64,000 nucleotides of DNA from Eubacteriales bacterium (GTDB lineage Bacteria > Bacillota > Clostridia > Oscillospirales > CAG-272): positions 5,487 to 69,486 of the forward strand of contig JBJDZJ010000191.1 in assembly GCA_051867915.1 (NCBI GenBank). Reading direction: 5' to 3'. Both the position numbers and the translations under genes were made by a program. The notes beneath the pieces are model-generated. The model did not search any database. It had not been told where the DNA came from and saw only the letters and a program-made list of their open reading frames with translations. Positions 2,707 to 38,380 of the stretch are shown here, in pieces; position 1 is the first letter of the stretch; each line of letters begins with the position of its first letter.

Positions 2707-2729
2707 AATGATCCGCTCCTCTCCCTGTT

Positions 2730-3353: not shown

Positions 3354-3393
3354 TTGTCTTTCCTCTCTTGATGTCCGGATGAATTTTTCGGGA

Positions 3394-16027: not shown

Positions 16028-16058
16028 CGGAGACTGTTTGTAATAAAGGAGAATTTAC

Positions 16059-18587: not shown

Positions 18588-18604
18588 TACCCAAAGTTCC
18601 TTTC

Positions 18605-18625
18605 CCGCCCCGGGGCTCGGGGCGG
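18605..18625 (+). promoter_or_regulatory. GC-rich intra-operon stem-loop between the binding-protein and permease genes
   Basis: CCGCCCCG gggct CGGGGCGG (8-bp all-G/C stem) with no T-tract. This is typical of a processing/stability element rather than a terminator. Confidence 0.5.
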
Positions 18626-18666
18626 AAGGGATCCAATATCTGAACGAATGAGGATAAAGAAGAAAA

Positions 18667-19740: not shown

Positions 19741-19758
19741 CGGGAGGAGGTATTCTGT

Positions 19759-20877
19759 ATGGATGAACAAAACAACAACCTTCCGACCGAGGATGGGGTT
19801 CAGATCAACAGCGACGCCGCCTGCGCAGGCGAAACCGAGGAGGAGACCTTCGTCACTGTTGAGGATGAGCTTCACGGCGAAAATCTCAACGACCGTGTGA
19901 AGGTTCTTTCACCCGGAATGACCATTGCCAAACGGTTTTTCCGCTCCCGTCTGTCGGTGGTGGGACTGGTGATTCTGGTTCTGCTGTTCCTGTTTTCCTT
20001 CGTGGGACCCCTTCTTTCCCCATGGGGCGAGATGGAGGTGGATGAAACCCCCACAGAGGTTATCAGCACCCTGCCCATCGAATATACGGTGGTCGTAAAC
20101 GGCGAAGAGGTCGTTCAGACTGCCTATGATGTGAACATCAGCATGACCGAGAACAATGTCAAGGGCAAGATCAGCGCAAAGCATTGGCTGGGAACCGATG
20201 AAACCGGCAAGGATCTGCTGACCAGACTGATGTACGGCGGCAGAATTTCGCTGACGCTGGGTCTGATCGTCGTGATTCTGGAGACCATTCTGGGCGTGAT
20301 TCTGGGCGGTATCGCCGGATATTTCGGCGGTTGGGTCGATCAGCTGATTATGAGAGTGGTGGATATCCTCTACTGTATCCCTCAGCTGCCCATTATGCTG
20401 ATTCTGTCGGCGACCTTTACCTCGCTGGGCATCGTGACCATCACCCGTCTGTATCTGATGATGGGCATTCTGACGCTGATCAGCTGGACGGGAATCGCCA
20501 GACTGGTCAGAGGCCAGATCCTGTCCCTGCGGGAGCAGGAATTCATGCTGGCGGCAAAATGCAGCGGACTTTCGGTTCGCAGAAAGATTTTCAAGCACCT
20601 GATCCCCAATGTCCTGCCTCAGCTGATCGTATCCATGACGCTGGGACTGGGCTCCATTATCCTGACCGAGGCAACGCTGGGATTCCTGGGACTGGGCGCA
20701 CCTTTGGGTACGGCAACCTGGGGATCGCTGATCAACTACGCAACCAAGACCGAATACCTGACCAACTATTTCAATTTCTGGGTTCCGCCCGGAATCTGCA
20801 TCACCCTTGCCATCCTCGCCTTCAACTTCGTGGGCGACGGACTGCGGGACGCATTTGATCCGAAGGCGAAGAGATGA
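19759..20877 (+). CDS. ABC transporter permease (OppC/DppC-type) with an acidic ~50-aa N-terminal extension
   Basis: RBS GGGAGGAGG. Motifs HWLGTDETGKDLLTRLMYGGRISL and AAKCSGLSVRRKIFKHLIPN are typical of the OppC class. Confidence 0.85.
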   Translation: MDEQNNNLPTEDGVQINSDAACAGETEEETFVTVEDELHGENLNDRVKVLSPGMTIAKRFFRSRLSVVGLVILVLLFLFSFVGPLLSPWGEMEVDETPTEVISTLPIEYTVVVNGEEVVQTAYDVNISMTENNVKGKISAKHWLGTDETGKDLLTRLMYGGRISLTLGLIVVILETILGVILGGIAGYFGGWVDQLIMRVVDILYCIPQLPIMLILSATFTSLGIVTITRLYLMMGILTLISWTGIARLVRGQILSLREQEFMLAAKCSGLSVRRKIFKHLIPNVLPQLIVSMTLGLGSIILTEATLGFLGLGAPLGTATWGSLINYATKTEYLTNYFNFWVPPGICITLAILAFNFVGDGLRDAFDPKAKR

Positions 20878-20887
20878 GATTCTTCCG

Positions 20888-20915
20888 GGATAACCGCATA
20901 GGAATGCGGTTATCC
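20888..20915 (+). promoter_or_regulatory. Intra-operon stem-loop between the permease and ATPase genes
   Basis: Perfect 11-bp stem GGATAACCGCA / TGCGGTTATCC with a 6-nt loop and no T-tract. Confidence 0.5.
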
Positions 20916-20932
20916 GCCAAAATCGGAGACTT

Positions 20933-22231
20933 TTGAAGAAAGGTATGTTCAATCGTATGGCAAAACAGAAATCAAGTCAATCTCATTATATCTCTCACTC
21001 GGAGTCCAAGCGGATTGCTGCCGAGAACCGTGCCGCCTACCGTCGGTATCAGGCAAGGAAAAAGCTGAAAATCGCCGAAAAGGACTATCTGACAAAGATG
21101 AAGGATCCGGCAAACCTTGTGGAATTCGAGGATCTGCATACCTATTTCTATACCGATGCCGGAACGGTCCGTGCCGTCAACGGCGTGACCTTTTCGGTAC
21201 CTGAAGGGGCTACCGTGGGAATCGTGGGCGAGTCGGGATGCGGAAAGAGCGTCACCTCGCTCTCCCTGATGCAGCTGGTCATGGGACCCTCGGGGCAGAT
21301 CGTGTCCGGTTCCATCCGCTTCCGCACCAATGCCTTCAAACGGGATGCCAAAGGGCGGAAGATCCCCGTATACAGTGGGGACGGTTCCAAAAAGCCGCTG
21401 AAAAATGAGTTCGGAGGCACCCTCTACGAGATGGAGGAGAAGGTCTACGACATAGCAAAGATGCCCCTGTCCGCTATGCAGAGCATTCGGGGACGGGAGA
21501 TCGCCATGATCTTCCAGGAGCCGATGACCTCCCTGAACCCCGTGTTCACCGTGGGAAATCAGCTGGATGAAGTGGCACTGCTCCACATTGAGGGCATTTC
21601 CAAGCAGGCGGCAAAGGAAAGAAGCATCGCCATGCTGGAGAGAGTCGGAATTGCCGATCCGGCGGGCGTATACGAAAAGTACCCTCACGAGCTGTCGGGC
21701 GGTATGCGTCAGAGAGTCATGATCGCCATGGCGCTGATCTGCTCCCCCAAGCTGATCGTGGCGGACGAACCCACCACAGCGCTGGATGTGACCATTCAGG
21801 CGCAGATTCTCGATCTGCTGCGGGAGATCAAGGAAAAGCAGAAGAGCTCCATTATGCTCATCACCCACGATCTGGGCGTCGTTGCCGAAATGGCAGACTA
21901 TGTGGTGGTCATGTATGCGGGCAAGATCATCGAAATGGGCACCACCGAGGATATTTTCGACCATCCCATGCATCCTTATACCATCGGTCTGCAAAAGAGC
22001 AAGCCGTCGGTCAGCTCGGATGTGGAATCGCTGTACTGTATTCCCGGATTCGTTCCCAATCCCATCAATATGCCCAATTACTGCTACTTCCGGGATCGCT
22101 GTGACAAATGCAAAAAGGAATGCGCCGGGAAATATCCCGATCTGATCGAAATTACAAAGACCCATAAGGTGTCCTGCTATCTGTATGCAGACGGGCAGAA
22201 CCGGGAGAAGGGGGAGTCCGGCAATGGATGA
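20933..22231 (+). CDS. ABC transporter ATP-binding protein (OppD-type) with N-terminal extension and internal insert
   Basis: Walker A GESGCGKS, signature LSGGMRQR, Walker B LIVADEPTTALD and the oligopeptide C-terminal motif HPMHPYTIGL. The start is uncertain: TTG at 20933, ATG at 20945 or ATG at 20957. Confidence 0.85.
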   Translation: MKKGMFNRMAKQKSSQSHYISHSESKRIAAENRAAYRRYQARKKLKIAEKDYLTKMKDPANLVEFEDLHTYFYTDAGTVRAVNGVTFSVPEGATVGIVGESGCGKSVTSLSLMQLVMGPSGQIVSGSIRFRTNAFKRDAKGRKIPVYSGDGSKKPLKNEFGGTLYEMEEKVYDIAKMPLSAMQSIRGREIAMIFQEPMTSLNPVFTVGNQLDEVALLHIEGISKQAAKERSIAMLERVGIADPAGVYEKYPHELSGGMRQRVMIAMALICSPKLIVADEPTTALDVTIQAQILDLLREIKEKQKSSIMLITHDLGVVAEMADYVVVMYAGKIIEMGTTEDIFDHPMHPYTIGLQKSKPSVSSDVESLYCIPGFVPNPINMPNYCYFRDRCDKCKKECAGKYPDLIEITKTHKVSCYLYADGQNREKGESGNG

Positions 22232-23303
22232 AAATCAGATTCAAACGGTCAGAACCGAAAAGGAAGCCCCTCTTCTGGAGGTTCGACACCTGAAAAAATA
22301 TTTTCCCGTCAAGACCAGCCTGACCGGGAAGCCGCTGTCCCTTCTGAAAGCGGTGGACGATGTCTCCTTTACGCTGGAAAAGGGCAAAACCCTCGGTATT
22401 GTGGGAGAGTCGGGATGCGGAAAGACCACCATGGGTCGGACGCTCTTAAGGCTTTATCCCATTACCGACGGTCAGATCTTTTTCAAGGGACAGGAGGTCT
22501 CCAAGATCTCCAACCGGGAGTTCAACAAGCTCCGTCCCCATATGCAGATGATCTTCCAGGATCCCTATGCCAGCCTGTCCCCCCGTCTGACGGTGGGCGA
22601 GATCATCGGCGAGGCGGCACTGGAGCACGGACTGGTGGATAAGGCGCACTATCGGGAGTATGTGCTGGAGATCATGAGAATGTGCGGCCTTCAGCCCCAT
22701 TACTACGAACGATATCCCCATGAGTTCTCGGGCGGTCAGCGTCAGAGAATCTGCATTGCCCGTGCGCTGGCGCTGAAGCCCGATCTGGTGATCTGCGACG
22801 AGCCGGTGTCGGCTTTGGATGTGTCCATTCAGGCGCAGGTTATCAACATGCTGAAGGATCTGCAAAAAAAGCTGGGTCTTGCCTATGTTTTCATTTCCCA
22901 CGATCTGTCGGTGGTCAAACACATTTCGGACGATGTGGGAGTCATGTATCTGGGGTCGCTGGTGGAGTACGGCAGTAAGGCGCGGATTTTTGAAAATGCC
23001 CTGCACCCCTACACCAAGGCGCTCTTTTCGGCAGTGCCTGTCCCCGATCTCCATGTGAAGAAGGAGCGGATTGTGCTGAAGGGCAGTATTCCGTCTCCGG
23101 TCAATCCCCCTGCGGGATGCAAATTCCATACCAGATGCGATCACTGTATGGAAATCTGCAAGAGCGTTCCCCCTGTCTACCGGGAGGTGGAGGAGGGTCA
23201 CTATTGCGCCTGCCATCTCTATGATGAGATGCCTGCCAAAACGGCAGAAACGGTTGAAAATGCAGAAACAACGGCTGAAAAGCCCACCCATACCGAAGAA
23301 TAA
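22224..23303 (+). CDS. ABC transporter ATP-binding protein (OppF-type)
   Basis: Walker A GESGCGKT, signature FSGGQRQR, Walker B LVICDEPVSALD and HPYTKALFSAVP. The ATG at 22224 (MDENQ) overlaps the upstream stop (ATGGATGA) and follows GGGGGAG. The track start at 22185 is rejected. Confidence 0.85.
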   Translation: MDENQIQTVRTEKEAPLLEVRHLKKYFPVKTSLTGKPLSLLKAVDDVSFTLEKGKTLGIVGESGCGKTTMGRTLLRLYPITDGQIFFKGQEVSKISNREFNKLRPHMQMIFQDPYASLSPRLTVGEIIGEAALEHGLVDKAHYREYVLEIMRMCGLQPHYYERYPHEFSGGQRQRICIARALALKPDLVICDEPVSALDVSIQAQVINMLKDLQKKLGLAYVFISHDLSVVKHISDDVGVMYLGSLVEYGSKARIFENALHPYTKALFSAVPVPDLHVKKERIVLKGSIPSPVNPPAGCKFHTRCDHCMEICKSVPPVYREVEEGHYCACHLYDEMPAKTAETVENAETTAEKPTHTEE

Positions 23304-27965: not shown

Positions 27966-28040
27966 GGACCTAAGAGAAAGGTGAATCATAGATCGGATCA
28001 TTCCGACCCGAAACTGATCTGCAAGAAAGGAAGAACAAGA

Positions 28041-30860
28041 ATGAAAACGAAACATTTTCCCACTCGTCTGACTGCGCTGATCCTCAGTGTGTTCATGTTA
28101 GTGCCGACACTGTTGACGGCATGCAAGAGTGGCGATGGGGAAACTACGACCTCCGACAAAACCACAAGTATCGGTGCGTCAAGTTCCGCTGCGACTACGG
28201 TTTCCGACGGCACTCAGCAGAGCCCCGATACCACGCCTCCGACGACAGGTATGGTTTCCTATACCGTCCTTGTGAAAACACAGGGAGGAATGCCCATATC
28301 GGGAGCCAAAGTTGTGATGACCGACCCTCAGGGAATTGAGGTTGCCAACTCCACCACCGATGAGAGCGGCAAGTATACCACATGGCTGAATCCTGCCGAA
28401 TATTCGGTGACCGTCTCCGGTCTGAAAGAGGGATTCCAGGCACCCACCGAGCCGGTGAAGACCTCCAAAGAGGGCGGAGAACAGACCGTCACGATCCAGA
28501 CCTCGGTTATCACTACTGAGGCGCCTTCCGGTCTCGCATATCAGGTGGGCGACATGATGTATGACTTCACCTTTGTCGACGACAACGGTAACGAGGTGAA
28601 ACTGACCGACATCCTGAAAACCAAGAAACTGGTTGTCCTGAACTTCTGGGCAACCTGGTGCGGACCCTGTAAGTCGGAATTCCCTGCCATCCAGGAAGCG
28701 TACGAAGAATATGAGGATTCGGTGGAAATCATCGCCATGAGCATCTCCGATAACCGGGGTGCCTGCCTTGAATTTAAACAAAGCGGCGGTTATACCTTCC
28801 GTTTCCTTCCCGATTTCGGCTTGAATGAGGCGTTCAAGGCGTTTGGCAACGGCGCAATCCCCTATACCCTGTTTATCGACCGTTACGGTATGTTTGTCAA
28901 CTATGTGCAGGGTGCCGATCCCAGCGCAGAAGCCTGGAAAACGGAATTTGAGGGCTATACCTCTGATAACTATGTTCAGAAGCCCGGTTCTCCCATTTCT
29001 GCCGATACCTATCCCGAAACTTCCGGCTCCGAGGATGTGGAGAAGCCCGATGTGTCCATGCCCGCCTCTTCTGAGATTGAGGCTGCCATCAACGGTTCCG
29101 GATTCAAGGGAAGCTATACGGCTCCTGCTTCCGATACCATTTGGCCCTGGGTTCTGTCCGAGGATAAACAGAGCATCGTTCCCGGCAACATCGGAAAACA
29201 TTCATCTGCCGCTATGATTACCACCGAAGTCACCCTTAAGAAAGGGCAGGCTCTGGCATTTGATTTCCGGGCGTCCATCGAACGGGACAGCCAGTCGGTC
29301 TACGACTATGATATGTTCGTCATCTATGTAGACGGCAGCGCGGTTCAGAACTTCTACGGTAAGCACAGTGATTGGGAAACCTGCTACGCCTATGTGGCGG
29401 ATGCCGACGGAACCTATTCCGTCACCCTCTACTACGCAAAGGACGATTCCGACTGGTATCTGCCCGATGGGGAAGAATATCTGAATATCCGCAATATGCG
29501 GATTGTCGGTGTGGACGACATCGCCTCCTCCGGTGTTTCGCTGAATATCCGCCGCCCTGCAACCACCGGGGTCAATACCGCTGATAATCCCGCCACCAGT
29601 TATCTGAACTATGTTGATGTGGTTCTGAATAAGGAGGACGGCTTCTACCATGTTGGAACGGCAGACGGTCCCATTCTTCTGGCAGGTATCATGAACGGAA
29701 CCGCCTGGTCTCCGACTTCTGCTTACACTCTTGCAACCAACGGCTATCTGATCATCGGCGGTGTGGATTACGAAAGTTCGGTTACCAAATATGCTTGGCT
29801 GGAAAAGCACAGTACACTTCCTTATTGCCCGGTAGATGCGAAACTGGCAGATCTTCTGGATCTGATCGCCTCCTCTGTGGGTGAAGGACCCGACCATGAC
29901 AAGGAATGGTTGGAGTTCTGTTGCTACTACGATCACTATGGTACCGGCAAGGGCATCACCGAGGTTCGTGATGTCCGTCAGGGCATCAGCATGGACAGTT
30001 CCTTTACCGCAACCGAGGGAACCAATCATGTGGTTGTCAATCAGGTCCTGGTTCCCAGAGGATTCTACTATGAATTCAAGCCCACCAAGAGCGGTGTTTA
30101 TGTCTTCCATTCGGTCAACCCCGCTGATGATGAAATTGATACCATCGCATGGCTGATGGCTTCCGACGGAACATTCCTGGATGAGGATAACGACAGCTAT
30201 GACGGAACCAACTTCCAGATCAAGAGTTATTGTAAGGCAGGAGAAAGCTACTATCTTCTGACGGCATTCAATGCGACCGACGCACTGGGCGAGTATGACT
30301 TTGTGATTGAATATTTGGCGGAAACAGCTGATGATTTCATCCCCTGCACCTTCCAGTATACCACCAATGAGAGCGGCTCCCAGATTCTGATTGACCGCCG
30401 TTACAATGTGCATGTTGCATTGGGTACAGACGGCTACTATCATCAGGTGCTTTCCTATAAAGCAGACGGAACCCCCGTTCTGGACTACTCTGAGCATGGC
30501 TATGTCTATGTGGATTTTGTGGGTGTTTCGATCTTTACTTCCTATATCCCCTGGATTGGCAGTTACTGCACGCTCCAGAAGTATATTGAGGAAAACGGCA
30601 AGAGCAACAACGGCGGCTTTGACTTTACCATCCGTACCGACAGTGAGGGTACTTCTTTGGCAGAACTTGGCAACCATCAGGCTGAAATGGAAGCTTATCT
30701 GGCAGAAGCCCTGAAGGCGACCGGTGATGAGTACGGCTTTGTGAAGGCGGATGAACAGTTGGTTGAGATTCTGAACTCTACATTGATCCGCCTCTACGGC
30801 GAACCCAGTGTAGTGGATCAGTGGCTGATGTTCTGCTACTATTACAGACACTTAAACTGA
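28041..30860 (+). CDS. Lipoprotein (939 aa): prealbumin-like beta-sandwich + TlpA/ResA-like thioredoxin (WCGPC) + ~600-aa uncharacterised region with a PPC-like domain and two copies of a G(F/Y)YH module
   Basis: Start MKTKHFPTRLTALILSVFMLVPTLLTAC after AAAGGAAG. CarboxypepD_reg-like segment YTVLVKTQGGMPISGAKVVMTDPQGIEVANSTTDESGKYTTWL. Thioredoxin core KKLVVLNFWATWCGPCKSEFP (WCGPC at 28656-28670). Confidence 0.85.
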   Translation: MKTKHFPTRLTALILSVFMLVPTLLTACKSGDGETTTSDKTTSIGASSSAATTVSDGTQQSPDTTPPTTGMVSYTVLVKTQGGMPISGAKVVMTDPQGIEVANSTTDESGKYTTWLNPAEYSVTVSGLKEGFQAPTEPVKTSKEGGEQTVTIQTSVITTEAPSGLAYQVGDMMYDFTFVDDNGNEVKLTDILKTKKLVVLNFWATWCGPCKSEFPAIQEAYEEYEDSVEIIAMSISDNRGACLEFKQSGGYTFRFLPDFGLNEAFKAFGNGAIPYTLFIDRYGMFVNYVQGADPSAEAWKTEFEGYTSDNYVQKPGSPISADTYPETSGSEDVEKPDVSMPASSEIEAAINGSGFKGSYTAPASDTIWPWVLSEDKQSIVPGNIGKHSSAAMITTEVTLKKGQALAFDFRASIERDSQSVYDYDMFVIYVDGSAVQNFYGKHSDWETCYAYVADADGTYSVTLYYAKDDSDWYLPDGEEYLNIRNMRIVGVDDIASSGVSLNIRRPATTGVNTADNPATSYLNYVDVVLNKEDGFYHVGTADGPILLAGIMNGTAWSPTSAYTLATNGYLIIGGVDYESSVTKYAWLEKHSTLPYCPVDAKLADLLDLIASSVGEGPDHDKEWLEFCCYYDHYGTGKGITEVRDVRQGISMDSSFTATEGTNHVVVNQVLVPRGFYYEFKPTKSGVYVFHSVNPADDEIDTIAWLMASDGTFLDEDNDSYDGTNFQIKSYCKAGESYYLLTAFNATDALGEYDFVIEYLAETADDFIPCTFQYTTNESGSQILIDRRYNVHVALGTDGYYHQVLSYKADGTPVLDYSEHGYVYVDFVGVSIFTSYIPWIGSYCTLQKYIEENGKSNNGGFDFTIRTDSEGTSLAELGNHQAEMEAYLAEALKATGDEYGFVKADEQLVEILNSTLIRLYGEPSVVDQWLMFCYYYRHLN

Positions 30861-30926: not shown

Positions 30927-30987
30927 GAATCCGGACCATGTAATGATCTCGGATCACGATGATTATACTACGAATGGAGAAAATACA

Positions 30988-31893
30988 ATGAAACGAACCA
31001 CATCCCGAATTTTGGCGGCATTGCTCTCTGTTACCCTTGCACTGCCCGTTTTGGTGTCCTGTCAGGAAAATACGGTGGAGAACCCTTCGTCGTCTACCTC
31101 TGCACAGACCGAAATGACTGCGGTAACAACCGAAGCGAATTTGGAGCCCGGCGATCCGGTTCCCTATTCCTTTACGGTCAAGACAACGGGAGGATTGGCA
31201 CTCTCCGGAATAGAACTGATTCTGACCGATTCCGAAGGCAATCAGGTGGCAGATGCGACCACCGATAAGAGCGGAAAATGCAGTGTAACATTGCCTGCCT
31301 ATGAATATACCGTGTCCCTGAAGGGACTTAAGGCAGGATATTCGCTTCCTGCAGGCTCTGTCAAAACCACCAGAGAGGGCGGACAGGTGAAAGTTCCGGT
31401 GGAAACCGGGGTCATCACCCAAAAGGAACCCAATACCCACAGAAGTTACTCAGAAGGGGACATTATGTATGATTACACCTTCACGGTAGACGGGGAGGAA
31501 GTCAAACTGTCCGAATTGCTGGAAACCAAAAAACTGGTGGTCATCAACTTCTGGGCAACCTGGTGCGGTCCCTGCGTGTCTGAATTTCCTGCCATTGAAG
31601 AGGCATATGCCGATTATAAGGATTCGGTGGCAATCATCGCTTTGAGTATCTCCGATAATGAGTTTGCATGTTCCAATTTCAAAAAACGGGGAAAGTACAG
31701 CTTCACTATGATGCCGGAAGACGGTATCGGTATTTATTCCCGATTTGACAAGGGTGGCATCCCGTTGAGCATCTATGTTGACCGCTACGGAATGTATGTG
31801 GGCTATGATCTGGGCGCAGATACCAGTGTGGATTCCTGGAAGGCTAAATTCAAACGGTATACCGCTGACAACTATGTCCAAAGAATCGAATAA
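30988..31893 (+). CDS. Lipoprotein (301 aa): prealbumin-like beta-sandwich + TlpA/ResA-like thioredoxin (WCGPC)
   Basis: Start MKRTTSRILAALLSVTLALPVLVSC after GGAGAAAA. YSFTVKTTGGLALSGIELILTDSEGNQVADATTDKSGKCSV, then KKLVVINFWATWCGPCVSEFP (WCGPC at 31561-31575). By eye roughly 60 percent identical to the first ~300 aa of the preceding gene. Confidence 0.85.
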   Translation: MKRTTSRILAALLSVTLALPVLVSCQENTVENPSSSTSAQTEMTAVTTEANLEPGDPVPYSFTVKTTGGLALSGIELILTDSEGNQVADATTDKSGKCSVTLPAYEYTVSLKGLKAGYSLPAGSVKTTREGGQVKVPVETGVITQKEPNTHRSYSEGDIMYDYTFTVDGEEVKLSELLETKKLVVINFWATWCGPCVSEFPAIEEAYADYKDSVAIIALSISDNEFACSNFKKRGKYSFTMMPEDGIGIYSRFDKGGIPLSIYVDRYGMYVGYDLGADTSVDSWKAKFKRYTADNYVQRIE

Positions 31894-32040: not shown

Positions 32041-34080
32041 ATGAAAAAGCACAAGAAACTTCTTCTCAGTCTGGCAGTTCTTTGCCTGACAACCATGGTG
32101 TTGGCTTCCTGTGGCGGTGGAGAAGGCAATACGACCACCAAGTCGGATTCGACTCAAACCACCACGACTGCGGCAGTCACACCCGGTGCATCCACCACAA
32201 ATCCTGCCACTTCTCCCGATCCTTCTACCGATGAAAAGGCATATGTGTTCACCGTCGTCTGCGGCGATACCAATCAGCCTGTCAGCGGTGCGCAGGTTCA
32301 GATCTGCAAAGGCGATGAATTCTGCCTGATGCCCGTAGCAACCGATTCCGACGGTAAGGCCAATTATGTTCTCACCGGCGGCAATGACTACGGCGAGTAC
32401 GATGTCCATATCATCGGAGGCATTCCCGAAGGATACACCTTCGACAATGCTTCGGTGAAGACAACTGCGGACACCCACAATTATACCCTGACCCTGGTGA
32501 AGTCCGGAGAGGAAACTTCTCCTAAAACATCCGGAGAGGCAACCGGCGCACCTACGACTACCAATCCTCCTGTCACCAATCCTCCTGTCACCAATCCTCC
32601 TGCTACCAATCCTCCTGTCACCAATCCTCCCGCTACTAATCCCCCTGCCACCAATCCCCCGACTCCCACCACATCGGCTCCCATCATTACTACGACGAAG
32701 CCCGCAGTGACGACCCAGCCGGGAACCGACAATCCCCCTGCAGCCTGCCAGCACACTTTTGTCAACGAGATCTGCACCAAGTGCGGCGAAACCAAAACAT
32801 ACAATTACACCCTGAAAGTGGTCTACGACTATGACTGCGAGGATGCAGACGGTGTTTCCCACAAAGCGGGCGATCCCATCTCCGGAGTAGAGATGGTATT
32901 CACCAACGGTGAGATGGATCATCTGTATGCCAAGGGTACCACCGATAAAAACGGTGAGATCACCTTTACGGCTCCCAAGTATGTGGAGACTCAAGTCTAT
33001 GACGGCGTAAAGACCGAAGTTGCCGGATTTACCATCACCGTCACAGGCGGAATGCCCGAGGGCTTCATGCACGATCCGCTTCTGGCGTTCCAGCCCGGTG
33101 CCACGACGCATACCATTTCCTTCTATCCCAAGCCGGTTCAGGGAGAGCGGACCGCTTTCAATCCCGATACTCTGAAAGCAGGAGTTACGGTAAAGGTTTC
33201 TCTCGGCGAAGCTCGAATGGACGATATTGATGATTTCTGGCATACTCCCCAGGACGATTCTCTCTACTATTATGCTTTTCGTCCGACCAAGCAGAGCGAT
33301 GTGGGTGTTTACCGTGTCACCATCACCAATCTGAAGGGTGCTTCCTCTGTTTATATCGGAAACTACCCCAACTCCGGATACGGCTATGTCGCTTATTCTC
33401 CCGATTACTCTGACAGTGGTGCGAATCCTTCTTTTGAATTTATCATTGAGGATACCTACCTGAAGAACAGCGATGGCGAATGGACCTTTGATAACAAGTG
33501 GCTGTTCGGTGTCCGTGCGGATGACGCAAATGCCACCTATCCCGTTACATTCGATCTGAAGATCGAGCGGATCAGAGACATTGTCCCCGGTCAGGATGTC
33601 CCGATTTATGACTATGTGTACCCCGATGTTCCCGCCAATGCACCAAAGGCAGATGCCATCACCGGTTCTGTTGACGGAAAGACTTTGGGTTATGTATCTA
33701 CCGATGTGGAACTGGTCAAGGACAGCAAGGGCTACTACCATGTCGGTTCTGTTGACGGTCCCATGGTTATGCTGCTTATCAGCAGTGCAAACCGGATTCT
33801 CGGAAGCGAGGGTCTGACCTTCTGTAATGTCAATACATATTCGGGTGCGGAAAACCTGAGTGCATCTACCTACGATGAGGCAACCAACACCTATACCATT
33901 TACAAGTACGAAAGTATGCTTCAGCAGTACGGTACCCTTTGTAATGAAGACGGTGCTTATCCCGTGAACGATCAGCTCCTTGACTTCCTGAAGCTGTGGG
34001 TTTCTCAGAAGGCAAGCACGGTTCCTGCGACGGTGGATAAGGATCACGCATATCTGTATGCTTGCTCCATCTATCAGTAA
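32041..34080 (+). CDS. Lipoprotein (679 aa): prealbumin-like beta-sandwich + TNPP(V/A) linker + uncharacterised region ending in the same G(F/Y)YH...CxxY module as 28041-30860; no thioredoxin domain
   Basis: Start MKKHKKLLLSLAVLCLTTMVLASC after AAAGGAAA. YVFTVVCGDTNQPVSGAQVQICKGDEFCLMPVATDSDGKANYV. The C-terminal KDSKGYYHVGSVDGPMVMLL ... PVNDQLLDFLKLW ... AYLYACSIYQ parallels KEDGFYHVGTADGPILLAG ... PVDAKLADLLDLI ... WLEFCCYYDHY in the 939-aa protein. Confidence 0.8.
   Translation: MKKHKKLLLSLAVLCLTTMVLASCGGGEGNTTTKSDSTQTTTTAAVTPGASTTNPATSPDPSTDEKAYVFTVVCGDTNQPVSGAQVQICKGDEFCLMPVATDSDGKANYVLTGGNDYGEYDVHIIGGIPEGYTFDNASVKTTADTHNYTLTLVKSGEETSPKTSGEATGAPTTTNPPVTNPPVTNPPATNPPVTNPPATNPPATNPPTPTTSAPIITTTKPAVTTQPGTDNPPAACQHTFVNEICTKCGETKTYNYTLKVVYDYDCEDADGVSHKAGDPISGVEMVFTNGEMDHLYAKGTTDKNGEITFTAPKYVETQVYDGVKTEVAGFTITVTGGMPEGFMHDPLLAFQPGATTHTISFYPKPVQGERTAFNPDTLKAGVTVKVSLGEARMDDIDDFWHTPQDDSLYYYAFRPTKQSDVGVYRVTITNLKGASSVYIGNYPNSGYGYVAYSPDYSDSGANPSFEFIIEDTYLKNSDGEWTFDNKWLFGVRADDANATYPVTFDLKIERIRDIVPGQDVPIYDYVYPDVPANAPKADAITGSVDGKTLGYVSTDVELVKDSKGYYHVGSVDGPMVMLLISSANRILGSEGLTFCNVNTYSGAENLSASTYDEATNTYTIYKYESMLQQYGTLCNEDGAYPVNDQLLDFLKLWVSQKASTVPATVDKDHAYLYACSIYQ
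32560..32664 (+). repeat. Seven tandem 15-bp units (ACCAATCCTCCTGTC consensus) encoding (TNPPV/A)x7
   Basis: Read directly: units start at 32560, 32575, 32590, 32605, 32620, 32635 and 32650, each with 0-5 substitutions relative to the consensus (the last two units are the most diverged). In frame within the 32041-34080 CDS. Confidence 0.95.
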
Positions 34081-34107
34081 TTCCGACGGTTTCATCCTAC
34101 AAAAAGA

Positions 34108-34146
34108 GCGATCGGCAATCCTTTGCGGATTGCCGATCGTTTTTTC
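34108..34146. terminator. Bidirectional rho-independent terminator closing the 27-kb plus-strand block
   Basis: GCGATCGGCAATCC tttgc GGATTGCCGATCG followed by TTTTTTC. It is preceded by CAAAAAGA, which gives a T-tract for the convergent minus-strand unit. Confidence 0.8.
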
Positions 34147-34321
34147 AAAATCGGTTGTTTGGATGTGAAACCGTGATTCACAATTGAAATCAAATTTTCT
34201 CTTCCGTTCGCCCCTATTCCCGGTTGAATCTATCCCCCATGATGCAGTTTCCGAAATCTGCACCGTGGGGGATCCAACTCATAGGGCGTGCCGCAGGACG
34301 GTCGGACAACGGCCGCAGGAC

Positions 34322-35920
34322 TCATTCGCCGTCCAAAGCGGGAGCGATGGCGGCAATGAGCTGATCGTATGTTACCGATCCGGTGCGTCGGAAGATGATC
34401 TTGCCTTCCTGATCCACAATTACCGTGACGGGAAGGGCGTCCGACTTGCCGATCATCTCCAGAACGGTTTGATTCTCCGCCTGCGTCTGGGCAGTATCCA
34501 GAACGAATCCGACCTTCCAGTCACTCCAGCCCTTGTTCTCAATGAAAGCATCTACCGGCTCGGTGACCAGTCCGTGAATGGCGACCACCGTCAGATCGTC
34601 GGCAAATTCGCCGGAAAGCTGTTCAAAGTAGGGCAGTTCGTTGACGCAGGGACCGCACCAGGTCGCCCAGAAGTTGATGACCACGATCTTTCCCTGATGT
34701 TCCGACAGGATGAAATCGGGATCGCCGCCTGCGCCGGGCAGGTTGAAATCGGGACAGTAGTTGCCGACCTGATAGCCGTAGACCTTTTCGTTCTCGTCCG
34801 TATCGGTGGTCGGTGGCGTGACGGGATCGTCCGGCACGGTCTTTTCTCTGTCGTAGATGTTGTAGTACCAGAGTGCCGTCAGCAGGACCGCAACGGCAAG
34901 AACCCCGGAGACGATCTTCAAAATCATGCCTCTGCGTCGGATTTTGGCGTTGGTTTCGGCAATTTTTGCTTCATCGACGGCATTGTCTTCCGATTTCACC
35001 CCTGTGGCGGTTTCTGTGGGGATGAAATACTTGGAGCCGCTCCAGTGGATGGCCTTGGTGGGACAGACCGGAATACAGCCGCCGCAGTGGATGCACTCGT
35101 GATCGCCCACATGGCGGATGTCCATCTTGCAGGTGGTGACGCACAGTCCGCAGGAGACGCATTTGTCTTTATCCAGCTTGACGCCGATCAGCGCCAGCTT
35201 GCAGAAGAAGCCGTAAATGGCGCCCAGGGGACAGAAGAAACGGCAGAAGAATCGGAAAATGAAGATGCTTGCCACGATAAATCCCACCAGCAGACAGAAC
35301 TTCCAGGTGAACAGCGGTCCCAGCATGGGGAAGAGATCGGTATTGTTCTTGTTGGACAGCAGACCGATGGCACCTTCAAGGGTTCCGGCGGGGCAGATGT
35401 ATTTGCAGAATCCCGGCACCGCCAGCTTATCCATAAAGGCAAGCGGGATCATGATGACCAGCGCAACCAGAATCACATACTTGAAATAGGAGAAAATACG
35501 GGTGAATCGGTTCTTTTTCAGCTTGGGAGAGGGGATTTTGTGGAGCAGTTCCTGAATCAGCCCGAAGGGGCAGAGAAATCCGCAGATGGTCCGTCCCAGA
35601 AGCAGTCCGAAGAGGATGATGATACCGAAAACATAGGCGGGAAGCTTGGTGTTGGAGCTTGCCAGCGCATTCTGGAGGGCGCCCAGCGGGCAGGCACCCA
35701 CCGCTCCCGGGCAGGAATAACAGTTCAGACCCGGCAGGCAAAGGTATTTGGTGGAACCGGTGTAGATTTTCCCCGAGACGAAGCCTTTGAGATTGGCGTT
35801 GTACAGCATGGCGGCGTACAGCTGAATCAGCCGACGCTTGGTGGGCAGATAGCGGCGAATCCTGCCCTCTTTTTTTACTTGCTCCCCGGCTTGCGGGGTT
35901 TCTTTTTCAACGGTTTTCAT
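34322..35920 (-). CDS. Membrane polyferredoxin (NapH/NosR-like CX3CP motifs + 2x[4Fe-4S]) fused via a TM helix to a C-terminal TlpA-like thioredoxin domain (WCGPC)
   Basis: Motifs in order: CYSCPGAVGACP (res 67-78), CGFLCP (113-118), CKYICP (172-177), CRFFCP (226-231), CVSCGLCVTTC...CIHCGGCIPVCP (254-287). Then TM MILKIVSGVLAVAVLLTALWYY (332-353), and KIVVINFWATWCGPCVNELP (WCGPC at 34646-34660). Starts 18 nt after the upstream gene's stop. Confidence 0.85.
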   Translation of the reverse strand: MKTVEKETPQAGEQVKKEGRIRRYLPTKRRLIQLYAAMLYNANLKGFVSGKIYTGSTKYLCLPGLNCYSCPGAVGACPLGALQNALASSNTKLPAYVFGIIILFGLLLGRTICGFLCPFGLIQELLHKIPSPKLKKNRFTRIFSYFKYVILVALVIMIPLAFMDKLAVPGFCKYICPAGTLEGAIGLLSNKNNTDLFPMLGPLFTWKFCLLVGFIVASIFIFRFFCRFFCPLGAIYGFFCKLALIGVKLDKDKCVSCGLCVTTCKMDIRHVGDHECIHCGGCIPVCPTKAIHWSGSKYFIPTETATGVKSEDNAVDEAKIAETNAKIRRRGMILKIVSGVLAVAVLLTALWYYNIYDREKTVPDDPVTPPTTDTDENEKVYGYQVGNYCPDFNLPGAGGDPDFILSEHQGKIVVINFWATWCGPCVNELPYFEQLSGEFADDLTVVAIHGLVTEPVDAFIENKGWSDWKVGFVLDTAQTQAENQTVLEMIGKSDALPVTVIVDQEGKIIFRRTGSVTYDQLIAAIAPALDGE

Positions 35921-35938
35921 ATTCGACTTTCCCGCTCC

Positions 35939-36850
35939 TTATCCCAGACCGATACACTCGGTGCAGATGTTGGTTGCTTTTACGAACACATCCCGGACGC
36001 TCTCATTGAAGCATCCGAACAGAACCAGTCCCACGCCCACGCAAACAAGGGCAATTCGCAAAACAAAAATCCATTTTCGGCTGTTTGCAGGCTTTGAGAC
36101 GGCAACAGAGGATTTATCTCCGATCAGGGTCAGATGCTTTTCGATGTCGATGATCTTTTGAATCTGACGGTCCCGAAGGATTACATAGACGATCGCCGCC
36201 AGGAGCATTCCACCCACAAAGGGAAGGGAGAAGAGCGCCATTTTCACCACCTCGCCGTTGAGATCGGTGTTGGGAAAGTGGGAAAAATCCAGCAGGTAGC
36301 AGAAGGGGAAGAGGGCGAGAATCAGGCAGATCCCGGATGCGATCCCAAGAAGCAGTTTGGATTGCTTCAGCAGTCCGCGATGCTCGGACTGTGTAGCCGA
36401 AAATTCGGCTAAATTTTCGGCGTCTTTTTGATTGGCGGGAGCATTCGGAAGGCGCTTTGACAGCCGATCCCGGGTCATGTAGGCGGGGGTCTTCCTCCGC
36501 TTTTCGGGGACGGTCGGGCAGATCAGACTGTACACCATGCCGAAAAGGGTGACTGCCAGCCATAAAATCAGAACGGGGAGAACAAAGGCGAATTTTTCGG
36601 CGACGATCTCCCGACTGTAAATCTGGATACCGGCCTTGGCCTTGGAGACGGCAAGACGGGTCTGGGACTCATTCAGCCCCTGACGGATGGCTTCCTGCTC
36701 GGCGGCTTCTGCCGCCTGAACTCTTGCCTCGGTTCCTTCCCGATAGATGGAAGCGGTTTGAAAGATGAACAGGGCGCCCAGCGCCAGCGTCAGCAGAAGG
36801 AAGAGAAGATCATATGCCCACCGCAGCGGGCGTTTTCGGTTATCGGACAT
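35939..36850 (-). CDS. Five-TM membrane protein with C-terminal CxxC tail (...ATNICTECIGLG)
   Basis: The ATG at 36850 (MSDNRKRPLRW) lies 11 nt after AAAGGA. The GTG 9 nt upstream, used by the track, is too close to the RBS. Five hydrophobic helices. CTEC is encoded at 35954-35965. No family recognised. Confidence 0.7.
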   Translation of the reverse strand: MSDNRKRPLRWAYDLLFLLLTLALGALFIFQTASIYREGTEARVQAAEAAEQEAIRQGLNESQTRLAVSKAKAGIQIYSREIVAEKFAFVLPVLILWLAVTLFGMVYSLICPTVPEKRRKTPAYMTRDRLSKRLPNAPANQKDAENLAEFSATQSEHRGLLKQSKLLLGIASGICLILALFPFCYLLDFSHFPNTDLNGEVVKMALFSLPFVGGMLLAAIVYVILRDRQIQKIIDIEKHLTLIGDKSSVAVSKPANSRKWIFVLRIALVCVGVGLVLFGCFNESVRDVFVKATNICTECIGLG

Positions 36851-37028
36851 AATCCGCACCGTCCTTTCGGCATCTTTTTTGCAGAAGAGGTCAAAGACTC
36901 TGCATACGCATGTATTTTACCATAAACCGCCGCAAAAGTCAACTTGATTTTGCAAATTGCCCGAATAATTTGTTCCGAAGGGCATCTTTGCGAATACAGC
37001 GGATTTTCGGAAATTTTTTCAAAACCCA

Positions 37029-37057
37029 TTGACCGACCGGGAAAATGGGTGTATAAT
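37029..37057 (+). promoter_or_regulatory. Sigma-70 promoter of metY
   Basis: TTGACC (37029-37034), 17 nt, TATAAT (37052-37057). The ~45-nt leader contains the hairpin TCGGGAGA ggc TCTCCCGA. Confidence 0.7.
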
Positions 37058-37105
37058 ATAGAAAAACATCGGCGATCGGGAGAGGCTCTCCCGACGGAAA
37101 GGAAT

Positions 37106-38380
37106 ATGAATATGCAAGACGAAACCAAATGCCTTCATGCAGGCTACATGCCCAAAAACGGCGAACCCAGAGTCCTCCCCATCGTGCAGTCCACGACCTA
37201 TGTGTACGATTCCGCAGCTGAGGTTGCCGCCATTTTCGATGATCCCACCAAGGGACTGTGCTATTCCAGGTTCGGAAATCCCACGGTTATGGCGGTGGAG
37301 GAAAAGATCAACGCCCTGGAGGGCGGCGTGGGTGCCATGTGTACCACATCGGGTCAGGCGGCAACTCTATTGTCCATCCTGAACATCTGCAAGGCGGGCG
37401 ACAGCGTGATCTCTACTGCCGAAATTTACGGCGGAACCATCAATCTGCTCTCTTTCACTCTGAAGAAGCTGGGAATCGAGTGTATCTACATCGACAAACA
37501 TTCCACCGATGACGAAATCCGTGCTCGGTTCAAGGAGAACACCAAGCTGGTCTTCGGCGAGACCATCGCCAATCCCGCTCTGACTGTTTTCGACATCGAA
37601 CGCTTTGCCGGTATCGCTCATTCCATGGGCGTTCCTCTGATTATCGACAACACCTTCGCAACGCCCATTCTCTGTAAGCCCTTTGAGTTTGGCGCAGATA
37701 TAGTGATCCACTCCACCACCAAATACATGGACGGTCATGCACTGCAGGTGGGCGGCGTCATTGTGGACAGCGGCCGCTTCGATTGGACAAACGGTAAATT
37801 CCCCGAGTTGACCGAGCCGGACGAGTCCTATCACGGAATCTCTTACACGAAGGCTTACGGAAAAGCCGCCTATATTATCAAGGCGAGAATGCAGCTCATG
37901 CGGGATTTCGGGGTCTACCCCGCTGCCCATTCGGCATTCCTTTTGAATCTCGGTCTGGAAACCCTTCCGGTTCGGATGAAGCAGTACTGCGAAAATGCTT
38001 TGGCAGTGGCGAAATATCTGGAAAGTTCACCTGCCGTCCTGAAGGTGAACTATCCCGGTCTGGAGTCGGATGAAAACCATGCTCTGGCAGTAAAGTACCT
38101 GAAGGGATGCTCCGGCGTCATTTCCTTCATCATCAAGGGAGGCAGAACTGCCGCGGCGAAGTTCATGGATTCGCTTCATCTTGCCTCCAACGAGGTTCAT
38201 GTGGCGGATATCCGGACCTGTGTCCTTCATCCCGCAAGCGAGACCCACCGTCAGCTGACCGACGAACAGCTTGCCGCCGCAGGCATTGATGGCGGAATGG
38301 TCCGTTTCTCGGTGGGACTGGAGAATATCGAAGACATTCTTGCCGATCTGGAGGCTGCCCTCAAAGCCGTCGGCGAATAA
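37106..38380 (+). CDS. metY: O-acetylhomoserine aminocarboxypropyltransferase / sulfhydrylase (PLP-dependent, Cys/Met metabolism family)
   Basis: TKCLHAGY, VQSTTYVY, YSRFGNPT, and the PLP-lysine motif HSTTKYMDGH. The start is ATG 37106 or 37112, downstream of the mapped promoter. The track start at 36944 lies upstream of the promoter. Confidence 0.85.
   Translation: MNMQDETKCLHAGYMPKNGEPRVLPIVQSTTYVYDSAAEVAAIFDDPTKGLCYSRFGNPTVMAVEEKINALEGGVGAMCTTSGQAATLLSILNICKAGDSVISTAEIYGGTINLLSFTLKKLGIECIYIDKHSTDDEIRARFKENTKLVFGETIANPALTVFDIERFAGIAHSMGVPLIIDNTFATPILCKPFEFGADIVIHSTTKYMDGHALQVGGVIVDSGRFDWTNGKFPELTEPDESYHGISYTKAYGKAAYIIKARMQLMRDFGVYPAAHSAFLLNLGLETLPVRMKQYCENALAVAKYLESSPAVLKVNYPGLESDENHALAVKYLKGCSGVISFIIKGGRTAAAKFMDSLHLASNEVHVADIRTCVLHPASETHRQLTDEQLAAAGIDGGMVRFSVGLENIEDILADLEAALKAVGE

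Follow-up and report, generated by a model that had tools for sequence, protein, structure and literature searches.

How DsbD/CcdA, cytochromes and, more recently, flavinylated NapH-like systems supply reductant outward across the membrane is well described. In chemistry of the ferredoxin:thioredoxin reductase (FTR)/HdrB type, one-electron Fe-S carriers bring about the two-electron reduction of a thioredoxin disulfide by way of a cluster-adjacent cysteine. NapH-like modules have been proposed to carry electrons between the cytoplasm or quinol pool and extracytosolic acceptors (Méheust et al. 2021, PMC8238504; PMC5928378), and those described feed NapG, FMN-binding domains or reductases (Méheust et al. 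2021, PMC8238504). The membrane module of NapH, NosR and RdhC is defined by four helices, two CX3CP motifs and, in NapH and NosR, two C-terminal [4Fe-4S] motifs (PMC5928378). At the locus described here, a module of this kind is fused to a thioredoxin domain and lies next to a gene for a membrane protein that ends in a CXXC tail. We found no paper on this combination in the library searched, and the two proteins together point to an uncharacterized route by which reducing power could cross the membrane of gut Clostridia.

The tail protein (303 amino acids, 35939–36850, ATG to TAA) is encoded on the minus strand of the window, the whole stretch of 64,000 nucleotides that was analyzed; all features given below are on this strand. 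It is a five-transmembrane (TM) protein with a C-terminal CXXC tail of the CD1871A type, and is 100% identical to a protein annotated by NCBI as "hypothetical protein" (P0001) in a Eubacteriales metagenome-assembled genome. A start at the in-frame GTG at 36859 would lengthen the protein by three amino acids, but homologues begin at the ATG. The stop codon (35939–35941) is followed at once by GGAG and then by the ATG of the partner gene, the spacer being 18 nt (35921–35938). As the preliminary description had it, no terminator was found between the two genes in a terminator scan; on the minus strand the scan gave only a weak 5-bp stem within the downstream gene (35044–35032) and, 3' of the partner gene, a strong terminator-like hairpin with a 13-bp stem and a T-run (34109–34139). 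Upstream, about 64 nt from the target ATG, is a promoter-like site, TTGACT-17-TAAAAT with TG (36914–36942), as judged by consensus match only. The divergent intergenic region had no Rfam match at E ≤ 0.1, and a regulatory RNA in this region was rejected on that ground.

Five clear hydrophobic helices are evident in the target from Kyte-Doolittle averages over 19-residue windows (means 2.3–2.6), with approximate boundaries. TM1 (residues 15–33, 36752–36808; mean 2.28) follows a basic N-terminus (RKRPLR). TM2 (residues 88–106, 36533–36589) comes after a predicted outer loop that bears the family motif IYSREIV. TM3 comprises residues 166–184 (36299–36355), and TM4 (residues 206–224, 36179–36235) follows outer loop 3-4, which contains an SHF...DLN motif. 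TM5 (residues 261–279, 36014–36070) anchors the conserved tail module in the membrane. Lysine and arginine together number 4 in the N-terminus, 8 in loop 1-2 (alongside 8 aspartates and glutamates), 12 in loop 2-3, 1 in loop 3-4, 8 in loop 4-5 and 2 in the tail. The means for the same segments over 74 five-TM homologues are 4.0, 2.9, 11.6, 1.3, 8.5 and 1.65, which amounts to 24 basic amino acids on the predicted inner side versus 6 on the outer. The predicted topology is thus N-in/C-out, with the tail outside the cytoplasm. The five helices and the basic clusters at the N-terminus and in loops 2-3 and 4-5 (4, 12 and 8) had been noted before and hold up; the outer placement of the last 22 residues agrees with the charge statistics, and their number is revised to ~24 by the helix boundaries.

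The protein ends in ...KATNICTECIGLG, and a check of the C-terminus against the sequence gave ...FGCFNESVRDVFVKATNICTECIGLG, as stated earlier. The CTEC motif (C296-T-E-C299, 35954–35965) falls within the C-terminal KAxxICTECIGLG-COOH. The hydrophobic moment of the tail is 0.35, which is not significant because ~10% of shuffles reach this value, and amphipathicity as a sign of a docking helix was rejected. In an AlphaFold2 model of the target alone, the accessory four-TM bundle had pLDDT values of 80–95, and TM5 and the tail values of 38–69. A Foldseek search of the accessory domain against the PDB returned nothing at E ≤ 0.001 (the best E, 0.5, was to generic long helices), a PDB profile search with the same domain returned nothing under E 0.05, and no Pfam family matched the target protein.

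Conservation is highest in the tail. KAxxICTECIGLG is invariant in an alignment of 22 sequences that reaches down to ~21% identity, and is located at the extreme C-terminus throughout. C296 and C299 both occur in every one of the 84 non-redundant members of the family; these are its only conserved cysteines, with none in the loops. Outside the tail, identity within the family drops to about 21–30%, and the mean frequency of the most common residue is 0.80 in the tail versus 0.20–0.52 elsewhere. A tail profile search found 2826 clusters at 50% identity, and among the best 150 of these the domain match ends on the last residue in every case. The tail motif occurs in at least 550 species genomes. 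Family members have five, three or one TM helices, the first two forms being common, and TM5 plus the tail is the sole part common to all architectures. The genuine one-TM form is encoded on a PLSDB-annotated megaplasmid of Peptoclostridium acidaminophilum. Many database entries of 48–60 amino acids are in fact long forms that were miscalled. Two candidate short forms were rejected for related reasons: the 47–48-amino acid entry P0023 (L089) proved to be a long form with a frameshift, and the start of P0164 (L093, L094) was miscalled inside an open five-TM frame. A further short entry, P0196, which is on a 640-bp contig, was set aside as uninformative.

The preliminary description had raised the possibility that the tail corresponds to a small CXXC family annotated in clostridia, and an HMM search confirmed this. 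Residues 267–303 (35942–36052) match model positions 2–38 of the 38-position NCBIfam model NF040920, "CD1871A family CXXC motif-containing protein", with 31.2 bits and an E-value of 1.5e-7. This score is 0.8 bit short of the curated cutoff of 32 bits, and PGAP would leave the target protein without the CD1871A name. Judged by sequence, homology to the family is nonetheless secure, because long-form homologues of the target pass the cutoff (P0006, 39.0 bits; P0017, 41.1; P0022, 41.8) and a bona fide, PGAP-annotated member of 45 amino acids, WP_168023683.1 of P. acidaminophilum, scores 63.4 bits; the three-TM form P0183, at 36.8 bits, is also above the cutoff. The residue-for-residue alignment of the target with WP_168023683.1 has R, G, V, KA, NIC, ECIG and G in common, and in both proteins a TM helix leads into ...VLxKAxNIC-x-ECIG-x-G at the very C-terminus. 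A word-index search with the tail by itself gave one candidate. The target has the TM helix, short tail and terminal invariant CXXC of the family; at 303 amino acids, with four additional N-terminal TM helices and long loops that lack a family match, it differs from the small stand-alone members of ~40–45 amino acids. NF040920 is typed as a domain, and therefore size may not define membership. We found no paper that mentions CD1871A and no published function for it.

In the partner (532 amino acids, 34322–35920), a NapH-like module and two [4Fe-4S] motifs are followed by a TM helix and by a TlpA/redoxin-type thioredoxin domain; the protein matches Fer4_5 (three times), Fer4, Redoxin, AhpC-TSA and Thioredoxin in Pfam. 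It has the four helices, two CX3CP motifs and two C-terminal [4Fe-4S] motifs of the NapH/NosR/RdhC module, and scores well below the cutoffs for NapH proper (70.3 versus 213 bits for TIGR02163, 49.3 versus 234 bits for NF007013); there are no nap genes near the target in the window. CX3CP motif 1 (C113/C117/P118, 35567–35584), which is conserved and common with NapH, and motif 3 (C226/C230/P231, 35228–35245) are at the predicted inner ends of helices 2 and 4, respectively. The two ferredoxin-type four-cysteine motifs (C254–C264 and C276–C286, 35063–35161) are predicted to be cytoplasmic. The fifth TM helix (residues 330–352, 34865–34933) is predicted to carry the thioredoxin domain outside.

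Six further invariant cysteines of the partner are located in two predicted outer loops and are missing from Escherichia coli NapH. Four are in loop A (C61-x5-C67-x2-C70-P-x5-C77-P, 35687–35740), and all four occur in 83 of 83 partners as well as in the P. acidaminophilum partner. The other two form an extra CX3CP motif, motif 2 (C172/C176/P177, 35390–35407), in loop C, and are 100% conserved. In the alignment to E. coli NapH, the four-cysteine loop is absent and the motif 2 segment deleted, and C113/C117, C226/C230 and all eight ferredoxin cysteines are kept. Loops A and C are poor in lysine and arginine, and the N-terminus and loop B rich in them. Helix 1 is only weakly hydrophobic (Kyte-Doolittle mean 0.73), and because of this the predicted outer placement of the four-cysteine loop is based on the analogy to NapH and on the charge bias. 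The thioredoxin domain (34346–34771) matches the NCBIfam models for ResA and TlpA, which are also its relatives in the PDB, is preceded by a TM helix, and was modeled by AlphaFold2 with pLDDT >90. It carries WCGPC (34646–34660), the canonical reducing thioredoxin motif, and the CxxC is retained in 94–95% of partners. In the model of the partner alone the cysteine loop had pLDDT below 50; such low values, here and in TM5 and the tail of the target, would be expected if a partner or cofactor is needed.

Pairing of the two genes is obligate in the loci analyzed. In each of the 85 loci for which downstream sequence was usable, the next gene encodes a NapH-like module (E ≤ 1e-83), and among relatives the partner starts between −56 and +52 nt from the stop of the tail gene, an 8-nt overlap being common. 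Thioredoxin is fused to the module in 80 of these loci and is a separate adjacent or overlapping ORF in four. In a reverse check from fusion homologues, two abundant clusters (L090, L091) also have the tail gene upstream, and the pairing recurs at L095 and in P. acidaminophilum. In the latter, the gene for the 45-amino acid CD1871A protein overlaps that for a 280-amino acid NapH-like "4Fe-4S binding protein" without a thioredoxin fusion; the target likewise lies directly upstream of its NapH-like gene, and both NapH-like proteins have the C-x5-C-x2-CP-x5-CP loop and three CX3CP motifs, the partner of the target differing by its fused fifth TM helix and thioredoxin domain. Three NapH-like genes that lack the four-cysteine loop served as negative controls, and no CXXC-tail ORF was found near them. 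Genes flanking the pair vary from locus to locus. Occurrence of the tail gene upstream of a NapH-like gene is an association found here, with no published definition. The proposal in the preliminary description of a dedicated partner for the adjacent thioredoxin fusion therefore stands as to dedication and synteny, whereas the constant partner is the NapH-like module and not the thioredoxin domain as such. Of the three findings that this description had named as speaking against it (an unconserved tail, a lack of synteny elsewhere and a cytoplasmic C-terminus), none was observed or predicted here. A search with the fusion partner found at least 8000 clusters at 90% identity (E ≤ 1e-20), and among gut Clostridia such modules are very common.

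The window also encodes extra secreted thioredoxin lipoproteins. Across loci, such a protein occurs within 4 kb in three of 80 (four split fusions aside), and these lipoproteins were rejected as part of the conserved unit.

The best reading of the target is as a dedicated subunit of the NapH-like module, and not merely as a substrate of thioredoxin. Its functional core is proposed to be the last ~45 amino acids, comprising a TM helix and a 22–24-amino acid external tail ending in KAxxICTECIGLG-COOH (the CD1871A domain), with the four N-terminal helices as a variable accessory. We tentatively favor a two-gene membrane redox module in which the target is the small subunit and its outer CXXC acts as a dithiol/disulfide relay to thioredoxin. 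The CD1871A tail would lie against the outside of the neighboring NapH-like polyferredoxin, and its CXXC would there join the six invariant cysteines that are specific to this subfamily and occupy the two outer loops of the partner. Electrons would enter at the two cytoplasmic [4Fe-4S] centers and inner CX3CP motifs of the partner, traverse the membrane module, and exit through the outer cysteine array. The tail CXXC would then reduce the WCGPC of the fused or adjacent TlpA-like thioredoxin, which in turn would reduce extracytoplasmic targets. The analysis shows the anatomy, the predicted topology, the invariance of the tail, the obligate pairing of the genes and the co-occurrence of the extra cysteines; that the two proteins form a complex, that electrons run outward and that the tail undergoes thiol-disulfide exchange are inferences. 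Counting against this proposal, we know of no electron path that spans the roughly 30 Å from inner to outer motifs for the entire NapH/NosR/RdhC class.

Thiol-disulfide chemistry at CTEC is plausible from its sequence, and a role for these cysteines as metal or cluster ligands is equally compatible with the data. The target would then be the same obligate subunit, its two tail cysteines and the six outer cysteines of the partner ligating one or two clusters or metal ions, which could form the electrical link between the membrane module and thioredoxin, by analogy with ferredoxin:thioredoxin reductase, or just hold the complex together. The invariant cysteine count (4 + 2 + 2 = 8) would suit ligation as well as it suits a relay, the partner belongs to an Fe-S protein family, both tail cysteines would share a face of the helix with I295 and A292, and the cysteine loop is poorly defined (pLDDT below 50) in a model without cofactor. 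On the other hand, the prediction places the site outside the cytoplasm, in a protein that is inserted by Sec/YidC and has no Tat signal, and we know of no route of extracytoplasmic Fe-S insertion into such a protein; an exposed cluster would, moreover, be oxygen-labile. The role of CX3CP motifs is undecided between disulfide and cluster, and for NosR, in which the reported ≤8 Fe are accounted for by the two ferredoxin clusters, disulfides are favored (PMC5928378). On balance, we consider ligation somewhat unlikely, although it merits serious consideration.

Less probable still is that the target stands outside the electron path and serves the thioredoxin domain or NapH-like protein in another way: as its dedicated substrate, as a factor in its assembly or maturation, or as its regulator. 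One example would be a membrane chaperone with a tail that WCGPC reduces. Tight gene linkage and the predicted location of tail and thioredoxin domain on the same side of the membrane are consistent with such roles, and the conserved outer-loop motifs of the accessory domain (IYSRE, SHF..DLN) could dock. Yet this domain is dispensable, as three-TM and one-TM forms exist, and the 13 invariant terminal amino acids and the extra cysteines of the partner suit a fixed interface over a transient substrate. The substrate and maturation factor suggested in the preliminary description therefore fit less well than an integral subunit, given that the P. acidaminophilum partner lacks a fused thioredoxin and that the six extra cysteines are invariant. 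The tail is short, invariant, cysteine-containing and C-terminal, with a redox enzyme gene adjoining, and could in principle be the precursor of a ribosomally synthesized peptide, or else a signal that is processed with a lipid or by a protease, with its neighbor as modifying enzyme. This we regard as very improbable: there is no conserved protease, transporter or radical-SAM gene nearby and the flanks differ in every locus examined, core peptides normally vary whereas the tail is invariant across families, and a TM anchor directly precedes it.

Extending the favored relay, the tail protein and its NapH-like partner could represent an undescribed class of transmembrane disulfide reductase, although this broader idea is doubtful at present. 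Such an enzyme would be Fe-S-driven, would draw on ferredoxin or some other donor of low potential without any need for DsbD/CcdA, and would power the extracytoplasmic thioredoxins of strictly anaerobic gut Clostridia. Eight cysteines at its outer site, six of them belonging to the partner and two to the tail, would carry out the one- to two-electron conversion, either in an FTR-like manner or through a new extracytoplasmic cluster. Should the relay model hold, it would provide a testable role for the long-puzzling CX3CP motifs and a function for CD1871A, a named yet uncharacterized family. It would also explain how these anaerobes keep surface or secreted proteins reduced, and would bear on oxygen tolerance and the handling of disulfide-rich host substrates.

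Among known systems, DsbB and VKOR, four-helix bundles with CXXC pairs in their loops and a quinone site, resemble the target in being polytopic helical membrane proteins with a CXXC and in partnering a thioredoxin fold, here encoded by the adjacent gene. The target has no Pfam, PDB-sequence or fold match to DsbB/VKOR, which places it outside that group; its CXXC is in a C-terminal tail, without conserved loop cysteines, and the thioredoxin of the partner has a reducing WCGPC and not an oxidase context. Ferredoxin:thioredoxin reductase and HdrB offer a mechanistic analogy only, with no sequence relationship, and FTR is a soluble enzyme whose motifs are arranged as CPC/CHC. DsbD/CcdA, with TlpA, ResA and CcmG, shares the logic of a transmembrane cysteine relay and, as output, a membrane-tethered, reducing TlpA/ResA-like CXXC domain on the outside. 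The components are unrelated in sequence, neither the target nor the partner having a Pfam match at E ≤ 1 to PF02683, the DsbD/CcdA membrane domain with its two TM cysteines, and the predicted input here is cytoplasmic Fe-S centers instead of a cytoplasmic thioredoxin. With NapH, NosR and RdhC (PceC), the partner shares the four-helix module, two inner CX3CP motifs and two C-terminal [4Fe-4S] motifs. The present module differs from described NapH-like systems in its thioredoxin-fold output, its six extra outer cysteines and its separate CXXC-tail protein, as proposed here, and thioredoxin would thereby be the fourth type of output of NapH-like conduits.

The five-TM protein is encoded by an intact minus-strand ORF (35939–36850, ATG to TAA, 303 amino acids), and its sequence, which ends in ...FGCFNESVRDVFVKATNICTECIGLG, is a 100% match to an NCBI 'hypothetical protein' of a Eubacteriales MAG. 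The next gene encodes its partner, the 532-amino acid NapH-like::thioredoxin fusion (34322–35920, minus strand), and starts after 18 nt that open with GGAG. A minus-strand scan between the two genes found no convincing terminator; a terminator-like hairpin (13-bp stem and T-run, 34139–34109, minus strand) occurs 3' of the partner gene, and a promoter-like site (TTGACT-17-TAAAAT, 36942–36914, minus strand) 5' of the five-TM gene. Judged by sequence, the two genes appear to form a bicistronic operon. The spacing, missing terminator, and five helices of the preliminary description were borne out. A PLP enzyme for Cys/Met metabolism (PF01053, E 4e-121) is encoded divergently (37106–38380, plus strand), so that sulfur amino acid metabolism adjoins the thiol-redox module. 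Rfam yielded no riboswitch or other match across 33900–37300.

Hydropathy places the helices at residues ~15–33, 88–106, 166–184, 206–224, and 261–279, and 74 of 84 nonredundant family members have five. Mean numbers of Lys plus Arg in these 74 are 4.0 at the N-terminus, 2.9 in loop 1-2, 11.6 in loop 2-3, 1.3 in loop 3-4, 8.5 in loop 4-5, and 1.65 in the tail following TM5, giving ~24 positive charges on one side of the membrane versus 6 on the other. By the positive-inside rule, this asymmetry predicts an N-in/C-out topology and thereby an extracytoplasmic CXXC tail, in agreement with the location proposed earlier.

The tail is the most conserved segment of the protein. K291, A292, I295-C-T-E-C-I-G301, and G303 are invariant in homologues down to ~21% identity. 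Across 84 sequences, the mean top-residue frequency is 0.80 in the tail versus 0.20–0.52 in every other segment, and C296 and C299 are the sole conserved cysteines. Searching with a profile built on the C-terminal 46 residues gave 2826 50%-identity clusters (E ≤ 1e-3), and in all of the best 150 the match reached the final residue of the protein. Three architectures occur among the matches: 5-TM (~250–300 amino acids), 3-TM (~140–160 amino acids, without the TM3-TM4 hairpin; 42 of the 148 best matches analyzed), and 1-TM. These architectures, along with the conservation, indicate that the functional core is a TM helix plus tail, the four N-terminal helices being accessory. AlphaFold2 modeled the accessory domain confidently (pLDDT 80–95), and no match to it was found among solved folds or PDB sequences. 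Its few conserved motifs (IYxxG, IYSRE, and SHF..DLN) are all in predicted outer loops. The 3-TM variant (L095 4001–4459; P0183, P0166, P0173, and others) consists of TM1, an IYSRE loop, TM2, and then a TM with the tail. Several family entries of 48–60 amino acids were rejected as short forms, since they derive from long forms through a frameshift or a mis-called start. Proteins of 47–48 amino acids with a CXXC were likewise artefacts, due to a frameshifted long form at locus L089 (621–1351) and to internal starts mis-called in an open 5-TM frame at L093 (~3300–4147) and L094 (~2650–3457). The downstream NapH-like::thioredoxin gene of L093 is intact and was left uncalled in the annotation.

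Pfam assigned the protein to no family. In NCBIfam, residues 267–303 match the whole 38-position model of NF040920, 'CD1871A family CXXC motif-containing protein', at 31.2 bits (E 1.5e-7), slightly below the 32-bit cutoff; other members of the protein's family score above it (36.8–41.8 bits). A 45-amino acid, PGAP-annotated member from the Peptoclostridium acidaminophilum megaplasmid (63.4 bits) aligns residue for residue with TM5 and the tail. These matches answer a question raised previously: the tail does belong to a small annotated clostridial CXXC family. A literature search found no paper mentioning the name CD1871A. We regard the protein as carrying the CD1871A domain behind an N-terminal extension, within a NapH-like conduit whose output is a thioredoxin. 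It is real, widespread, and uncharacterized, in a family already named.

A genome scan with the peptide ICTECIGL matched at least 599 stretches, 550 of which were confirmed as relatives; the 80 best loci are all from Clostridia. Downstream sequence is available at 85 loci, and in every one of them the following ORF begins −56 to +52 nt from the tail-gene stop (an 8-nt overlap is common) and matches the NapH-like module of the window at E ≤ 1e-83. Thioredoxin is fused to this ORF in 80 loci and is a separate overlapping ORF straight after it in four; in the remaining one, a contig end truncates the sequence. Flanking genes vary. The 3-TM form also lies upstream of a fusion (L095), and a reverse check from two highly populated fusion clusters again found the tail gene immediately upstream. 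In P. acidaminophilum, the 45-amino acid gene overlaps a 280-amino acid NapH-like gene without a thioredoxin fusion; a TlpA-family gene is ~1.5 kb away. The linkage upholds the proposal of a dedicated partner, but the unfused pair, taken with the 85 loci, indicates that the tail gene's constant partner is the NapH-like membrane module rather than the thioredoxin domain as such.

The fusion comprises three Fer4_5 repeats, two ferredoxin-type 4-Cys motifs, a further TM helix, and a TlpA/ResA-like domain with WCGPC. Its family has at least 8000 90%-identity clusters (E ≤ 1e-20), and it scores far under NapH cutoffs. Aligned with E. coli NapH, it shows a common core: a CX3CP motif at the inner end of helix 2, another at that of helix 4, and eight ferredoxin cysteines. 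Two insertions set the subfamily apart, C61-x5-C67-x2-C70-P-x5-C77-P in loop A and, in loop C, a third CX3CP (C172/C176); these six extra cysteines are kept in 83 of 83 partners, and in that of P. acidaminophilum. Loops A and C are poor in Lys and Arg (2.8 in 44 residues and 1.5 in 43), whereas the N-terminus and loop B are rich (7.8 in 30 and 5.7 in 28). This pattern matches the four-helix NapH-type module described previously (PMC5928378) and predicts the extra cysteines to be outside, although helix 1 is only weakly hydrophobic. In an AlphaFold2 model of the partner alone, pLDDT exceeds 90 in the thioredoxin domain, lies at 50–70 in the membrane module, and drops below 50 in the Cys loop. 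Among a small set of three NapH-like genes without the Cys loop (E. coli NapH, Bacteroides finegoldii, and Sulfurovum), no CXXC-tail ORF was nearby.

In some partner variants, including P0053, P0122, P0074, and P0078, the NapH-like module is followed by two or three TlpA-like domains in tandem. P0053 has lost the CXXC from the first two copies (FWDVENQMS, FWEIGNAKS) and retains WCTPC solely in the last. A distant NapH-like protein on a Sulfurovum mangrovi plasmid (L099 2204–3187) has other extra cysteines in equivalent loops (CPYNGESGGAC, CKMCP); its gene adjoins 2-hydroxyacyl-CoA dehydratase genes, with no CXXC-tail gene nearby. Cysteine decoration of outer loops may have more than one origin.

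Convergent with the operon are two genes for lipoprotein-like proteins (27981–30860 and 30943–31893, plus strand; lipoboxes LLTAC and LVSC), each having a CarboxypepD_reg/prealbumin-like domain and a Redoxin/thioredoxin domain with FWATWCGPC. Both could plausibly serve as clients of the module. Only 3 of 80 related loci have such extra thioredoxin genes within 4 kb, although the genes recur in L089, L091, L095, and L097. A 679-amino acid lipoprotein-like protein (32041–34080, plus strand; lipobox LASC) contains a Pro/Thr-rich repeat (TNPPVTNPPATNPP...) and gives weak SpaA/prealbumin-like matches. Upstream of the thioredoxin lipoproteins is what looks like a peptide-foraging locus (7244–23303, plus strand): a 2927-amino acid secreted subtilase (S8) that has PA, Fn3-like, and BspA-type LRR domains and, after it, an Opp-type peptide ABC transporter complete with SBP_bac_5, two permeases, and two ATPases.

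The outer face is predicted to carry the tail CXXC along with the partner's six extra cysteines and its WCGPC site; the partner's two [4Fe-4S] motifs are predicted on the inner side, together with two of its CX3CP motifs. The most economical model is a putative single complex of the two proteins. Reducing equivalents from a putative donor would enter through the cytoplasmic Fe-S domain, cross the NapH-like module, and exit through an array of outer cysteines that the tail would complete, to reduce the tethered thioredoxin.

A metal or cluster ligand at the tail would suit the total of eight cysteines, yet seems less likely than a relay, as no route is known for extracytoplasmic Fe-S assembly in a Sec/YidC-inserted protein. 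Furthermore, the CX3CP motifs of NosR have been argued to form disulfides rather than bind clusters (PMC5928378). For both reasons we tentatively favor a dithiol/disulfide relay as the role of the tail. The preliminary description had also considered a substrate or maturation factor; this is improbable, fitting less well with the unfused P. acidaminophilum pair and with a tail that is fixed, invariant, and interface-like.

The output of the module is like that of the DsbD/CcdA-TlpA pathway, although neither protein is homologous to its components, and the likeness to FTR is mechanistic analogy alone. The partner's membrane module is of the same kind as those of NapH, NosR, and RdhC. The acceptors in published 'NapH-like systems' are FMN-binding domains, NapG, or reductases, and neither thioredoxin output nor a CXXC small subunit has been described for them (PMC8238504).
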